From a virus, in the UHGV virus genome UHGV-1378817: a stretch of DNA of 64,000 bases; one strand, 5' to 3'. This document shows positions 8,100 through 56,415 of this stretch, piece by piece. The stretch's first letter is position 1. The number at the start of each line of letters is the position of its first letter. The position numbers were made by a program, and so were the translations under genes. Below the pieces are notes generated by a model that was not told the origin of the DNA, ran no database searches, and saw only the letters and a program-made list of their open reading frames with translations.

Positions 8100-9647
8100 T
8101 TAGATAAAACGCTTGAACATAGAAGGTGATGAGATTGATGGAATCACACAAGGAAGTGCTACCTCCTCTTTCTCCAGGAAATTAATCGCAGAAGCTACAC
8201 AGTCGGCCCAGTCGTCTTTTCTATTAAATGTTGATCTTTCCCCGTTGAATTTTTCAAGTTCAGTCAGAAATGCTTCCAGAGTATCAGGATGGAAACTGGA
8301 TTTTACAATCCTCACCATTCCTTGTTGGGCAAGATTGGCAAAAGGTGAGAACCTTGTCAGTTTAGATTTGTTGGAAGGCATTGGGTCTTCTTCAACCCTA
8401 AACCCTTCGGCGAGCAAGGATCTAGAGGAGGTTAAGAACTCACTCTTACCTGCCTGACCTGGGTCCACAGAGAAGACGATTATGCAATCATCACCATCAA
8501 ACTGCGCCTGTTTCCTGATGATCACATCTCGTTCACCAGCCTTTTTACAGAACTTGCCTTCCAGACCTGTGGAATACCTCCCGTCATCCACGTTCTCAGG
8601 ACAATAATCACCGGACAGGTAATAAAAGCCGTCGCTATCTTTACTTACCTTAACACTGGCGGTAAAGTCAGGAAACTTATTACCAGAAGTTCTCTCGGTT
8701 CCTGCCTTATCCCATGCCCTACAAGATACTGATCCAAGGGGCACTCTGTCGGCATCACGAAGGAAAGATCTTTGAAAATAGTTTGCACCCTCAGGCTTTG
8801 CAAACCAGTTACCATGGAGAAGCTGAGCTTTTTCAAGCTCGGGCAGACCTTCAAGGAAAGCAAGGTATTCTGGGTTGTCTCTTAAGCAGACAGGATTATC
8901 GAATATTGTTGCGCCTATAAACGAGAATGACAACGGTCTTGGCTTGATCTCCACACCCAGTCCGTTAACCGTGGTGTATTTCTCTATCAACTCTTCTTTA
9001 GAGTCTCCCCAGATAAATTCACCGTCGCGTCGGATAAAATATCTTTTCTTACCACATTTCTCCGGATCTGGATACCCTTCATCGTCCAACCACCATCTAA
9101 CCAGTTTGGCAAGCATGTGTTCTGAATCGGGGTTACAGCTGATAACCATTCTTGATGGATACTTTGACTGAGATCGCAGACGAGACATCAGATAGTCTAT
9201 CTGCTCCCATTCGAACTGCGTGCCCTCATCGAAGCAAACCATGGTATACTCAAGCCCTTGATGGTTAAGCTTATCTTGTACATACTCCATGTGGCAGTAT
9301 TTTACAACAGCTCCCTTTTTGCTTCTATCCCACTTGCCAGTGTTCGGATCAAACCGTGGAAAAATGAACTTATGATCCTTCTCTCTGAACTTTGGCTTAA
9401 TGTTTTCAGGCAGATCACTATAAATAGCTACTGCTTTAGGCCATAGTCCACCCTCACCTTCCAACTGTGGGGTTGTTCTTCGGAACATAACCACAGAGCT
9501 GTGGGGGTCATCAATAATTTTAAGTGGCATCAATTGCAAGAGGAACGACTTGCCAGACCCTGCGGCACCGCCGATTACCAAAATATCTGCATCGTTTTCG
9601 AGGATCATCTTCTGCTTTTCAGAACACGGTCCGTAAATCTTAGACAT
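8100..9647 (-). CDS. terL: terminase large subunit
   Basis: 515 aa; N-terminal Walker A VIGGAAGSGKS, central acidic motifs, C-terminal nuclease-like half; first gene of morphogenesis block. Confidence 0.8.
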   Translation of the reverse strand: MSKIYGPCSEKQKMILENDADILVIGGAAGSGKSFLLQLMPLKIIDDPHSSVVMFRRTTPQLEGEGGLWPKAVAIYSDLPENIKPKFREKDHKFIFPRFDPNTGKWDRSKKGAVVKYCHMEYVQDKLNHQGLEYTMVCFDEGTQFEWEQIDYLMSRLRSQSKYPSRMVISCNPDSEHMLAKLVRWWLDDEGYPDPEKCGKKRYFIRRDGEFIWGDSKEELIEKYTTVNGLGVEIKPRPLSFSFIGATIFDNPVCLRDNPEYLAFLEGLPELEKAQLLHGNWFAKPEGANYFQRSFLRDADRVPLGSVSCRAWDKAGTERTSGNKFPDFTASVKVSKDSDGFYYLSGDYCPENVDDGRYSTGLEGKFCKKAGERDVIIRKQAQFDGDDCIIVFSVDPGQAGKSEFLTSSRSLLAEGFRVEEDPMPSNKSKLTRFSPFANLAQQGMVRIVKSSFHPDTLEAFLTELEKFNGERSTFNRKDDWADCVASAINFLEKEEVALPCVIPSISSPSMFKRFI

Positions 9648-42113: not shown

Positions 42114-42508
42114 AGATTGAGATTACTAAAGAAGGTAATAAAGTGTCCGGCAACTATGCAACAGTAATTCGGGATTTAATGTTTGAAGCCACCAAGATCG
42201 GTACATCTAAAGTTGGTCAAACTGTTAGTGTGAAAAGTAATATCGCCACAGGAGAGAAGGTATTCATTGTGGTCAAAGGGCAGGATCCCGTGGAAGGAAC
42301 AGTGGGCCGAGGTGGCTACCTGTGCATTTCTGAAGAGCCGCGTATGTTAGTGGCTGACGCTACTATGGGTGGGAAACGTGTGTGCGAGGCGGATGAGGTA
42401 ATGATTATCCAACCTGTTGATCCAGATGACCCAGCAACTTGGGTGGTAGGAAATGAAATCTTCTCTTTAGAAGAGTTATCCTTCCCAGCACCGCGCTCTG
42501 TTCAGTAA
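42110..42508 (+). CDS. hypothetical protein
   Basis: 132 aa; ATGA overlap with previous gene. Confidence 0.4.
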   Translation: MKIEITKEGNKVSGNYATVIRDLMFEATKIGTSKVGQTVSVKSNIATGEKVFIVVKGQDPVEGTVGRGGYLCISEEPRMLVADATMGGKRVCEADEVMIIQPVDPDDPATWVVGNEIFSLEELSFPAPRSVQ

Positions 42509-53334: not shown

Positions 53335-53550
53335 ATGAAGATAGAAATATTTGGTGGGGCTGACAACACTCGTGGCCTGATTTACCTTGAATTTGATGAA
53401 TCATACCTGCCAGAGGTGTTAAATATAGACTCTGTTGCTGAGGCTTTGGGAGTAAACCCTAAAGAACTCCACTCTTGTGCTGAGATCGATGGTTGGGAAG
53501 AGACCATGAACATTGATTTCAGTGAAGTAGAGGACGAACCGCTGGACTGA
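53335..53550 (+). CDS. hypothetical acidic protein
   Basis: 71 aa; MKIEIFGG N-terminus; last plus-strand gene before non-coding region. Confidence 0.4.
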   Translation: MKIEIFGGADNTRGLIYLEFDESYLPEVLNIDSVAEALGVNPKELHSCAEIDGWEETMNIDFSEVEDEPLD

Positions 53551-53679
53551 CACACAATTAGCTGCCCGGCTAAAGTGCTGGAAGCGCACCTATAACACAT
53601 CTTTCAACTAAATTTCCTACCACCACAATCACTTACCTCCAACACATGACTGTTTGCTTGTTTAGTGAGCAGTCATGCC

Positions 53680-53707
53680 TTGACATTCTTGCCTATCCTG
53701 ATAAAAT
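53680..53707 (+). promoter_or_regulatory. sigma70-like promoter firing into ORF-poor region
   Basis: TTGACA, 16-nt spacer, TAAAAT; no convincing ORF downstream. Confidence 0.4.
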
Positions 53708-55021
53708 TAAGTTCTTCTCTTTTCTTTTACCGAGTAATTCGGGTTTTCTGTTCTCTTCGGTTTGAAGGGGTATGGAGATACACCTGAGTGAACAGGGTGA
53801 ACAACCGAACCATTGGCTATGGCATTAGCATGGCGAAGCGGACGGGTGACGAAAGAGGGGCCGGAGGACACCAGTCACTGCCATATGATATATGGGTGAT
53901 AACCTGAAGAGTCTGAATAAGTGTTTAAGTACCAGTCAGAGGAAAAGGTGAATGGTAGCCGAAGGGGGAGGGGGGTTTCTTGTATCTTTAATTTGTATAT
54001 TATGTATACACTTGTAAACCAATATCATCTAGATCTGTTTACCACACAAAGTGGATAGAGACAAATATTACCTATTAAACTTGAATTATTTATAGAAAAT
54101 ACCACAACACCACTTAAGTCTTTGATTTTACACACAAATCTTACAGATATTCAACCTCCATATTTAACATACCTGTAACATATTCCATACTCTACCTGCC
54201 TGATCAATTTCCCCAACTACATCCCTCATATTTCCCCTGTCTGTACTACCCTGCCCCACCGGGAGTCCCGTCATATCTGGCTTTCCAGCAAATATCACAC
54301 CCACAAATATCATGCCTGAAGAGGGTTTCATCCCATAATACCTGCCTTGCCTGAAGAGCGCTTCATACACCACGTAAATTTTTTAATTGACCTCCCCTGC
54401 CCCGCCGGAGAGGTTGGCTTTTCCCACACAGACCTGAAGAGTCAGCCAGAAATATCTGAATAGGCCCAGTTCTACCACGATTTTGACCTGACCTACAGGA
54501 GCGCTGCCAGGCGGACGAAATGGGAATACTTCTCATTCTTATAACAATTCTCAAATATCGAGGCAGTGAGGCAAATTAATAGGCCAGGCCGTTCACACAG
54601 TGGCACAACATTTGCAACCTATCTTGTGGGGGTGAATGAGAATACCTATCATTGTGAGAACCATTATCATTACGGGCAATTTAACATAATACCCATTATG
54701 CGCACCACTGGTGATACATACAGGGATTGATAACACGAGTTACAGTTTACGCATATAACAATCATATTTCTTACTATTTGTGTGGGATATAGTTAGCAGC
54801 CGATAGATTAGATATTGACCTGTGGACTTCCAACCGTCTAGACGTCTAAGCGCCCACACAACAAGGCTTATACATACATTACTGAATGTAAACAGGGCCG
54901 CAAAAATGCTACCATACCAGTTTGTAAATTTTCATGCAGCACTTGACAAAGAGGAGGAAAACTTGTCTGACACAATGTCACACAATATGACACAATAACG
55001 GCTGTTACCATTCCATATCTC

Positions 55022-55077
55022 ACTGTTTACGCATAGACTGTTTACGCCTGGATAGTTTACACCTTGACAGTTTACAC
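55022..55077. repeat. four direct iteron-like repeats with exact 15-bp periodicity (ACTGTTTACGC x2, ATAGTTTACAC, ACAGTTTACAC)
   Basis: Repeat starts at 55022, 55037, 55052, 55067; further copies of the core at 54742-54752 and 55493-55502. Confidence 0.7.
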
Positions 55078-55150
55078 AGATATGATAAGCCATGACATTC
55101 GTTTGCATGAAAACAATTAGCAAGTTAACAATTAACAAGTTAATAATATA

Positions 55151-55303
55151 TGACATAATATAAAAGCAGGGCAACTATTAGAAGATCTATAGTTGCCTTG
55201 CTTGTTATGTCATGATTAACTAAATACAAGGCAACTATGATCTGATTAATAGTTTGCAGACAAACTATCACGGGGGTGATGGTTACTGCTTTTATATTAT
55301 GTC
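55151..55303. repeat. ~150-bp element bounded by perfect 18-bp inverted repeats, containing internal GGCAACTAT palindromes
   Basis: Left arm GACATAATATAAAAGCAG (55152-55169), right arm CTGCTTTTATATTATGTC (55286-55303); inside, GGCAACTAT-N10-ATAGTTGCC. Confidence 0.6.
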
Positions 55304-55946
55304 GCGACTCCGTCGCGCCATGCCATTCGTTTGCATAGTTGCCTTATTGTTACAGATAAAATAATTGTATTGTTAATTATTTCTTATCTTTCTATTAGTC
55401 ATCTAATGATTCCGGTTAGTATAGTAACGTACAGTAAACATTAGACGACTAAATATTTCTATGTTTATGATAACCTATCGTGACAATTCCGGACTGTTTA
55501 CGAAAAATGTTGACACCTGAGCTGATTTATGTTATGCAATTTAAACGAATAATTATTTTATGCAGGTATTGACTATTCCGTTATTCTATGGTTGGAATAA
55601 ATACTTAGCAAGCTATAGAATGGTGAGCGTACGTAAATTCTGAGATTTGTCGGCTATAGTTATACTCGATTTTTCACGTAGAACACGCTTTTTGGTTTGT
55701 GTAAGTGTATGACTTATAAAGATTTTTAGTTGTTGACAAGATATTGAAGATGTGCATCAGGTTAAATTTTGTGCAATAGCTGCATTACGTGCAATTTTGG
55801 AAGGAAAACTGGTAAAAATAGCACCGATACCACACAATGAAAGGTTATGCAATAGCTATTTTATATGTATATTTGTACAGTGTGCAGGATTGATGGCTCG
55901 TCAATTATTCCACTTGCCAGGTAGGGCCGTTTATGGTAGGGGAAGA

Positions 55947-55977
55947 GCAGACAAAAAGAAAGGGGCCTAAGCCCCTT
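55947..55977 (-). terminator. intrinsic terminator closing the minus-strand gene block
   Basis: AGGGGC-ctaa-GCCCCT hairpin followed on minus strand by TCTTTTTGT, about 20 nt after stop of 55996-56415. Confidence 0.6.
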
Positions 55978-55995
55978 GATAATTCAGTTAAAAAA

Positions 55996-56415
55996 TTATA
56001 ATGATTCGTATATTTCAAAAATCCGATTTGCCAGGTCGTTACGGTAGCGGAATTTTTCCTCACGTTTGATCATCAGATCTTTAAAGCCGTATTCTTTAAG
56101 CACTTCATTAACTTTATGGCGGCATACCTTCATATTATCTTGAGCGTCACCAATAAACTTGTTGCTGTGGTGCATTGCTTTAATTTCTTCTTCCAGGACC
56201 AGGGCAACTACCCGTACCGGATCAAGCTGGTAGGCGGTAACATCGATGCGGCATTGTAGACGGCTTTTAACGTCTGCCACCGGATATACTGCAACCTCTT
56301 CCCCGTCAACATTGACAATAATTAGTTTACCATCGATTTCGAATCCTTTCGCCGCCGGACCGTGACAAAAAGCGTTATCAAAGCTATATGCCGGATTATT
56401 AGATTTAATGTTCAT
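55996..56415 (-). CDS. hypothetical protein
   Basis: 139 aa ORF with own promoter and terminator. Confidence 0.45.
   Translation of the reverse strand: MNIKSNNPAYSFDNAFCHGPAAKGFEIDGKLIIVNVDGEEVAVYPVADVKSRLQCRIDVTAYQLDPVRVVALVLEEEIKAMHHSNKFIGDAQDNMKVCRHKVNEVLKEYGFKDLMIKREEKFRYRNDLANRIFEIYESL

Follow-up and report, generated by a model that had tools for sequence, protein, structure and literature searches.

In phage T7, a palindrome lies on the right-end side of the direct terminal repeat (DTR), and a hairpin intermediate of the concatemers has been proposed to prime the synthesis that duplicates this repeat. Here, we describe an element on the left-end side of such a repeat, at positions 55152 to 55303 of a 64,000-nucleotide (nt) stretch of the virus genome UHGV-1378817 (the window; positions are those of the window unless another genome is named, and the + strand reads inward from the left genome end). 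The window belongs to the genome of a Vequintavirus (rV5-like) phage. Its element is the form taken in this genus by a strand-specific folded nucleic acid element that is conserved, cis-encoded, and present in a single copy. The left genome end (the DTR where this has been mapped) lies on one side of it and the point where the leftward gene cluster ends on the other, and it is found 100 to 300 bp inside the DTR. It is syntenic and nonmobile, its pairing is preserved by covariation among genera, its folding differs between the strands, and selection acts on the base pairing of one of them, the + strand. Of the readings considered, a processed noncoding RNA domain is the most likely.

Hairpin DNA containing the terminal repeat has been reported from T7 infection and used in models of repeat duplication, as cited in PMC4281155 (from Chung & Hinkle 1990; Molineux 2006). 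T7 and the phages considered here alike have short direct terminal repeats, with an inverted repeat a few hundred base pairs away in noncoding DNA where short repeats are dense. For both inverted repeats, participation in the duplication or processing of the DTR is proposed. An inverted repeat adjoining a short DTR in a concatemer-packaging phage was found in the window, in Gotham, and in Mt1B1_P17. However, there is no sequence relationship with T7, and the element is a multihairpin domain with strand-specific wobble pairs. In T5, the untranslated repeat regions and the injection stop signal (iss) contain inverted repeats of 131 bp that lie kilobases apart (Davison, 10.1101/866236). The likeness here is architectural, with no sequence homology to the element; in our own comparison, the unit GTTTACACA of the repeats neighboring the element matched the DnaA-box consensus TTWTNCACA at only 8 of 9 positions, and no TTWTNCACA was found inside the element. 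We know of no two-step injection in rV5-like phages.

Two further kinds of system are relevant. RNase III stems, such as those of the rRNA precursor stalks, the R sites of T7 early mRNAs, and lambda sib, are long double-stranded stems formed by sequences that flank a structured RNA. The closing helix of the element has 15 to 21 bp, running on into inner pairs, and is therefore near the size that RNase III is generally known to recognize, but T7 R sites have internal loops and sit between mRNA genes, while the element has no known flanking gene on the folding strand. Strand-specific multihairpin DNA folds of 70 to 200 nt also occur, as the ssi or primosome assembly signals (PAS) of plasmids and single-stranded DNA phages and as the T-shaped inverted terminal repeat (ITR) of parvoviruses. 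The 145-nt ITR of adeno-associated virus is similar in size to the 152-nt three-way junction predicted for the element, although the latter is internal and no flip or flop orientations were seen. To our knowledge, no involvement of PriA, primase, or Rep has been described for it.

Structure of the element

A first-pass annotation of the window had pointed out an inverted repeat with internal palindromes and two outer boxes, and these features were reproduced exactly. The arms, GACATAATATAAAAGCAG at 55152 to 55169 and its counterpart at 55286 to 55303, are reverse complements at 18 of 18 positions, with 116 nt between them. Exact copies of GGCAACTAT start at 55170 (+), 55189 (−), 55230 (+), and 55335 (−), the fourth of which is outside the element; the 64-kb window has a single further exact copy, at 42149, and two degenerate ones are found within the element (ATAGTTTGC, 55250 to 55258, and CAAACTAT, 55262 to 55269). 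The CATTCGTTTGCAT boxes (55096 to 55108 and 55324 to 55336) are the cores of a 20-nt direct repeat (55089 to 55108 and 55317 to 55336; 19 of 20 positions identical), located 43 and 13 bp away from the arms. Beyond these features, the left arm also pairs, imperfectly, with 55197 to 55213, and two additional hairpins (HP3 and a GC hairpin) were recognized. The components on the + strand are as follows.

55152-55169, + strand: left arm of the closing stem, unchanged in 19 of 20 distinct variants
55170-55197, + strand: hairpin U1, made of GGCAACTAT, a 10-nt loop, and ATAGTTGCC; stem invariant, loop sequence and length (9 to 10 nt) variable
55204-55229, + strand: variable spacer or apical loop, which takes a 33-bp insertion in typing phage 5 and LL12
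55230-55258, + strand: hairpin U2, made of GGCAACTAT, a 10-nt loop, and ATAG(T/A)TTGC; it contains one bulge and has diverged from U1, of which it is a copy
55263-55284, + strand: hairpin HP3, AACTATCAC-GGGG-GTGATGGTT, 9 bp with one T.G pair
55286-55303, + strand: right arm of the closing stem, unchanged in 20 of 20 variants
55303-55317, + strand: GC hairpin CGCGAC-TCC-GTCGCG, 6 bp, abutting the right arm
55317-55343, + strand: box 2, GCCATGCCATTCGTTTGCAT, overlapping the fourth exact ATAGTTGCC; the most conserved 30 nt of the region (0.99 identity)

U1 can be extended to 15 bp (55164 to 55203) through a G.T pair on the + strand, and the bulged base of U2 is its only variable stem-side position. 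Of 3000 shuffles of the surrounding 2.4-kb noncoding region, 2 produced a perfect inverted repeat with arms of ≥15 nt and 20 to 350 nt between them, and single-strand folding of the element gave z scores of −11 (+ strand) and −12 (− strand) against dinucleotide shuffles. The minimum free energy (MFE) fold is a 152-nt three-way junction in which U1 pairs with U2; a model of local hairpins agreed better with where the variable sites fall, and the junction was set aside. An open reading frame (ORF) of 43 amino acids on the − strand (55140 to 55271) has no ribosome-binding site and was taken as spurious. Inspection of the region by eye revealed nothing convincing as a site for IHF, CRP, or LexA.

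Distribution and lack of mobility

The element was found in 118 of 120 vequintavirus records, and in 108 of these it is at least 95% identical to that of the window. Ten records with 80 to 90% identity form a group that carries about 33 bp extra, an insertion placed in the apical spacer in the copies of typing phage 5 and LL12. The 118 records contained 122 matching places, with one main copy per record. No match was detected in 5,426 complete Escherichia coli genomes, nor a second copy in the rest of the window. In IMG/VR, the arm sequence was present in only two contigs, both from vequintaviruses, and the arrangement GGCAACTAT-N8-12-ATAGTTGCC occurred in eight other contigs, approximately the chance level by a rough estimate.

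FV3 is the only record reported without the element. Positions 55109 to 55316 of the window are deleted there, and a single box (2559 to 2578 of the FV3 locus, L005) replaces the arrangement of the window, in which 208 bp separate box 1 from box 2. This pattern is the expected product of recombination or slippage between the boxes and not of a duplication made by insertion. The propagation of FV3 as an isolate shows that the element is dispensable, a property shared with many phage small RNAs that we count in favor of an RNA. V18 (2433 to 2500 of its locus, L004) lacks the ACTGTTTACRY repeats found upstream of the element as well as box 1 and has an A12 run at that place, where an assembly error is possible. 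Taken with FV3, this means that each terminal noncoding component is missing from at least one sequenced isolate.

These data bear on the proposal of the first-pass annotation that the element could be mobile or a site of recombination. Like a miniature inverted-repeat transposable element (MITE), it has perfect terminal inverted repeats (18 bp) and a size (152 bp) within the range of 100 to 260 bp; conservation begins sharply on its left side, at 55150, and the FV3 locus, with its single box, might be read as an empty site if a cassette had been inserted with duplication of the CATTCGTTTGCAT box. However, its sequence occurs only in Vequintavirus records, in one main copy each, it is syntenic across subfamilies and has diverged in place along with the phage lineages that carry it, it is absent from the host genomes searched, and no target-site duplication adjoins the arms (left flank ..ATATAT|GAC, right flank GTC|GCGACT). 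A variant of this explanation, an invertible phase-variable segment bounded by the arms, is contradicted by the single orientation relative to the flanks of all 20 distinct vequintavirus copies and of the counterparts in other genera, and no recombinase context was found that would suggest a resolution site. Mobility or inversion is largely refuted, and we consider either of them extremely improbable. The outcome that the first-pass annotation named as refuting its proposal, a unique element without interruption in relatives or signs of mobility, is, as far as mobility is concerned, essentially what we observed: FV3 alone among the 120 records lacks the element, and 10 carry the insertion of about 33 bp. 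The element is single copy, syntenic, and nonmobile.

Eighteen records labeled "Campylobacter phage" (MG0656xx, UNVERIFIED) carry this Vequintavirus region with 83 to 99% identity; they are probably misattributed E. coli phage genomes.

Conservation of pairing within and beyond Vequintavirus

In an alignment of the 20 distinct vequintavirus variants of the element, 3 of 88 positions were variable in the arms, GGCAACTAT half-sites, and HP3 stem, compared with 21 of 64 in spacers and loops (Fisher test, 1e-6), and adjacent noncoding DNA of the same genomes had 26 to 40% variable columns. Among the changes, the U1 loop of V18 and LL12 has 9 nt instead of 10, and the T.G pair of HP3 becomes T.T in five variants. 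Taken by themselves, the Vequintavirus data are compatible with folding and with dyad-symmetric protein sites alike.

We therefore give weight to more distant relatives, in which counterparts were located via the conserved neighboring proteins and by reading the syntenic noncoding gap; a protein-anchored search of IMG/VR yielded only four loci. Syntenic elements were found in Certrevirus, Seunavirus, Mydovirus, Henunavirus, and Phapecoctavirus. Each has perfect arms of 15 to 21 nt with a sequence of their own, enclosing 72 to 217 nt of hairpins, and the right arm is followed by a hairpin or tail rich in GC.

SSE121 (Seunavirus): arm of 18 nt, GACACTATAACACGAGAG; gap of 183 nt
4MG (Seunavirus): arm of 20 nt; gap of 173 nt
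KB57 (Mydovirus): arm of 21 nt; gap of 164 nt
Mydo (Mydovirus): arm of 21 nt; gap of 217 nt
pEp_SNUABM_01 (Henunavirus): arm of 21 nt, GCCACCTATAAAAGCAAGTAG; gap of 173 nt
DU_PP_I and L038 (Certrevirus): arm of 18 nt, GACCAATAGAAAACAGGT (DU_PP_I); gap of 72 nt
Mt1B1_P17, phAPEC8, ECO340P2, and L037 (Phapecoctavirus): arm of 15 nt, GCTAATAATAAGCCA (Mt1B1_P17); gap of 97 to 98 nt
L039: arm of 15 nt, GCTAATAATAACGCA, with two positions changed in both arms; gap of 117 nt

The counterpart groups comprise 133, 71, and 26 phage records, beside the 118 vequintaviruses, which makes about 350 large enterobacterial phage genomes overall. In RNAalifold predictions, both partners were changed in 9 of 61 pairs in the Phapecoctavirus group and in 11 of 58 in the Seunavirus, Mydovirus, and Henunavirus group (five sequences each), and the compensatory changes fall in the arms, the internal hairpins, and the trailing GC hairpin. 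In the last of these, GCGAC-TCC-GTCGC of the window corresponds to GCGCC-TCC-GGCGC in Certrevirus, a compensatory change of A-T to C-G, and the Phapecoctavirus counterpart has three compensatory pairs (alignment columns 151 to 171). Within Certrevirus, one internal stem is wholly swapped (CTTTGC/GCAAAG versus GGCGC/GCGCC) around a conserved loop. Insertions are found in loops, that of 33 bp in typing phage 5 and LL12 and another of about 53 nt within a hairpin loop of Mydo. The arms differ in sequence and are always complementary, which, together with the internal compensatory changes, indicates that pairing, architecture, and position are conserved rather than sequence.

Some short motifs are nevertheless shared. 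All Vequintavirinae have GTTA|C before the right arm, the GGGGGTGAT..GTTAC of the HP3 region is common to Certrevirus, and the Henunavirus arm (..CTATAAAAGCAAG..) is similar to that of the window (..ATATAAAAGCAG). A BLAST comparison of the window region with the Phapecoctavirus loci matched only the neighboring gene and no noncoding DNA, and we base the putative relationship between these two forms on their synteny and architecture together with short motifs (GTTAC|arm|GC-rich and the resemblance of the pEp_SNUABM_01 arms to those of the window).

The comparison among genera also bears on an array of binding sites in double-stranded DNA, in which the GGCAACTAT-N10-ATAGTTGCC dyads and the 18-bp arms would be recognized by the small terminase subunit, a replication initiator, or a recombinase, as in pac, ori, or res-like sites. 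Invariant half-sites with variable spacers, four exact 9-mers inside 174 bp, nearby repeat arrays and AT-rich DNA reminiscent of origins, and the proximity of the packaging ends would all agree with such an array. However, the half-site sequences are not kept in other genera while the pairing is, the U1 spacer changes from 10 to 9 in V18 and LL12, and a perfect match of 18 to 21 bp between two arms in eight lineages exceeds the needs of any protein site. The strand asymmetry described below would be meaningless for duplex DNA, and FV3 lacks the element altogether. We give this explanation little credence. Neither GGCAACTAT nor TGACATAATAT nor the box was enriched elsewhere in the window, and a genome-wide operator was rejected.

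Position beside the terminal repeat

The window has the form of a concatemer joint, with right-end unique DNA followed by the DTR and left-end unique DNA. Terminal repeats of 458 to 459 bp have been published for vequintaviruses (PMC7471380, PMC6563267). Both the Gotham and YN3 records begin at position 54510 of the window, which, with the published lengths, places the DTR at 54510 to 54967, with the element 184 nt further inward from the left end. The repeat_region features of Gotham (1 to 459 and 136567 to 137025) are 100% identical. The first and last 328 nt of the Mt1B1_P17 record are identical as well, and we take this stretch to be its DTR. The distance from DTR to element is 184 nt in the window, 199 nt in Gotham, and 196 nt in Mt1B1_P17; wherever the genome ends are known, the element lies just inside the left one. 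Being about 640 bp from the genome end, it is internal and not terminal. It is part of about 2.4 kb without convincing ORFs, between the end of the rightward genes at 53550 and that of the leftward genes at 55996, and this noncoding region coincides with the maximum of the cumulative GC skew. The main features around the element are listed below.

54510-54967, no strand assigned: DTR, 458 bp; start of the Gotham and YN3 records at 54510
54943-54967, + strand: conserved TTGACA...AAAACTTGTC module closing the DTR; sequence conservation among relatives stops at its 3' end
54968-54997, + strand: repeats of the TGACAYAAT type, each about 10 bp, which open the hypervariable zone; content different in every relative
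55022-55081, + strand: four repeats with a 15-bp period, consensus ACTGTTTACRY
55089-55108, + strand: box 1, GCCATGACATTCGTTTGCAT, direct repeat of box 2
55109-55151, + strand: AT-rich exchangeable linker with a −35-like TTAACA; other vequintaviruses have 13 to 95 bp of unrelated sequence, often GC hairpins
55960-55977, − strand: canonical intrinsic terminator ending the leftward gene cluster; right limit of the noncoding terminal region

Conservation among relatives is high over the DTR, collapses exactly at its inner boundary, and returns at 55150, two bases before the left arm. The hypervariable zone in between (54968 to 55151) sets the distance from the end of the DTR to the element, which ranged from 96 to 306 bp across 21 genomes, and in the same genomes the ACTGTTTACRY repeat (period of 15 to 16 bp) had 0 to 9 copies. 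Homologous TTGACA-N17/18-TGT.. modules are found 250 to 430 nt upstream of the element in SSE121, 4MG, KB57, Mydo, and pEp_SNUABM_01, and CTTGACAGTTTACAC is conserved at a similar position in Mydovirus and Seunavirus.

Strand specificity and nature of the folded molecule

The + strand folded more stably than the − strand in all four genera compared (−67.8 versus −61.1, −57.4 versus −48.5, −93.5 versus −84.9, and −64.6 versus −50.8 kcal/mol) and in both consensus folds (−70.9 versus −57.3 and −69.3 versus −60.4, a difference of 9 to 14 kcal/mol). On this strand, G.U pairs are conserved, and switches between GU and AU and between CG and UG are observed. Such asymmetry argues for a single-stranded molecule and against protein sites in duplex DNA or symmetric cruciforms. 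The suggestion of the first-pass annotation that the site forms a cruciform holds for the pairing, preserved by complementary arms and compensatory changes, and the asymmetry argues against a symmetric cruciform. The asymmetry fits RNA best, although a folded top strand of DNA would behave similarly.

The reading we prefer, at slightly less than an even chance, is that the element is a processed noncoding RNA domain, whose RNA nature, processing, and function we infer from the patterns described above. The + strand would be transcribed inward from the terminal region, and the perfect closing helix of 15 to 21 bp would serve as a double-stranded RNA processing stem of the RNase III type. Processing at this stem would then release or stabilize a hairpin domain of approximately 110 to 220 nt as a noncoding RNA, accessory to the phage and not essential. 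Upstream of the element, TTGAC[AT] hexamers are found 27 times on the + strand, towards the element, versus 6 times on the − strand, and SSE121 has TTGACT-18-TATAAC 111 nt upstream of it.

Several observations weigh against an RNA. The upstream matches to sigma-70 promoters are weak and inconsistent among lineages, with none reaching at least 9 of 12 positions in Murica, Gotham, or L037. The best promoter-like site of this kind in the window (TTAACA-16-CATAAT with an upstream TG, 10 of 12, at 55132 to 55159) has its −10 inside the left arm, so that its transcript would lack this arm. No U-rich terminator follows the element. A covariance-model search against Rfam 15 gave no match at an E value of ≤1 in the window (53400 to 56200) or in the Mt1B1_P17, SSE121, and DU_PP_I loci, and hence no known RNA class backs the call. 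Among the 20 Vequintavirus variants no compensatory change was seen, because the stems never vary. Strand asymmetry and tolerance of G.T pairs are also expected for a folded single strand of DNA, and the arms contain no G.T pair in any of 146 bp from eight lineages, compared with about 9% wobble pairs in the predicted internal stems. Strictly Watson-Crick arms would fit a requirement at the DNA level at least as well as double-stranded RNA.

The main rival is a fold-back of single-stranded DNA in the replication or processing of the genome end. Once unwound, as the template of the lagging strand or following a nick beside the right arm, the top strand would fold and either prime synthesis back through the DTR, duplicating the repeat, or recruit primase or a primosome like an ssi or PAS signal. 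The steady distance of about 200 nt from the left DTR, seen in two subfamilies, the Watson-Crick arms of every lineage, as DNA pairing predicts, and the specificity of folding for the top strand agree with this, as do the lack of a convincing upstream promoter and the T.G to T.T change of HP3 in five variants, which would be neutral for DNA and not for RNA. A nick site could be marked by the conserved GTTA|C that precedes the right arm and by the GTC|GC and GC-rich hairpin that follow this arm, and the T7 precedent, a hairpin DNA with the terminal repeat, is reported as cited in PMC4281155. However, FV3 propagates without the element, so that a fold-back cannot be the only route to duplication of the DTR or to priming; its spacing from the DTR is not fixed (96 to 306 bp), and conserved G.T pairs and switches between GU and AU, as seen in the internal stems, are found more typically in RNA. 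We came across no nickase or HUH protein, although no search was aimed at them. On balance, we regard a DNA fold-back as rather unlikely.

Transcription termination was considered as well. Back-to-back intrinsic terminators would insulate the terminal region, with U1 and the U-tract of the left arm stopping leftward transcripts and U1 and HP3 with the U-tract of the right arm stopping rightward ones. U1 carries a terminator annotation in the Murica and Alma records, a consensus terminator scan flagged HP3 plus ACTGCTTTTA, alone within the element, as terminator-like, and the element is located where transcription converges, at the GC-skew maximum, and can be dispensed with in FV3. In a score of the d'Aubenton-Carafa type, only a rough guide, all hairpins of the element nevertheless had d values of −19 to −97. 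As controls, the terminator at 55977 to 55960 was the only hairpin that passed (d = +7) and the terminator-like hairpin of the scan at 53730 to 53742 had d = −52, which means that the score recognized one control and missed the other. In addition, the stems are AT rich and the U-tracts interrupted, the counterparts of other genera lack U-tracts, the leftward operon already has a terminator of its own at a distance of 650 bp, and terminators have no need for 18 to 21 perfectly complementary nucleotides, 72 to 217 nt apart, with pairing kept across genera. Terminators are in our view very unlikely to account for the element.

Other features of the terminal region

In place of the AT-rich linker, Murica has a GC-rich module (2585 to 2634 of its locus, L006), and the same applies to V18, LL12, typing phage 5, HMD-6, S127, and WM. 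It contains mutually exclusive hairpins, GGTGACC/GGTCACC versus CACCC-CTTC-GGGTG, the latter followed by TTTCTAT, and resembles an attenuator or a weak terminator. The best promoter match of the whole region is found at 53680 to 53757 on the + strand (TTGACA-16-TAAAAT with TG, 11 of 12), with a hairpin and a T-run within 25 nt, and may correspond to a very short transcript or an attenuator in the right-end unique region. In SSE121, a third copy of the arm sequence, GCGACACTATAACAC (8944 to 8958 of locus L032), lies 80 nt upstream of the element and is followed by a small hairpin and a T-run; TTGACT precedes it at an 18-nt spacing, so that the TATAAC of the arm would act as a −10.

Palindromes resembling Fur boxes, of the 7-1-7 type (TGAGAAT-N-ATTCTCA or TGATAAT-N-ATTATCA, with ≤3 mismatches), were enriched in the terminal noncoding regions. 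The window has four (54539, 54637, 54655, and 55108) versus 0.35 expected, DU_PP_I has eight, SSE121 seven, KB57 six, and Mt1B1_P17 four, and one of them forms a hairpin within the element of SSE121 and KB57. The noncoding region is adjoined by a gene for a 139-amino-acid protein (55996 to 56415, − strand), with about 91% identity between Vequintavirus and Phapecoctavirus, which belong to different subfamilies. Some records name this protein or its neighbor "DNA translocase", and Murica has "Rel homology domain".

Significance for terminal repeats and phage RNAs

The element is absent from Rfam, and there is no mention of it in the literature cited here. It is conceivable, at a fairly low probability, that it represents an undescribed class of structured elements tied to the genome ends of Vequintavirinae and Stephanstirmvirinae, whose perfectly paired closing stem and strand-specific core of hairpins would act in making or replicating the DTR (by hairpin-primed duplication or end priming) or would yield a processed RNA working with the packaging or replication machinery. 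For annotation, the consequence is that small ORFs should no longer be called across the element and that it should be neither labeled as a terminator nor treated as mobile.

The finding bears on how phages with short DTRs, T7 among them, duplicate the repeat and define their ends. For the rV5/phAPEC8 group, much used in phage therapy cocktails, the element provides a concrete and easily deleted candidate cis element, which in two subfamilies is found about 200 nt inward of the left repeat and of which FV3 is a natural deletion. If it acts as RNA, it would be a new and widespread family of phage noncoding RNAs not in Rfam.

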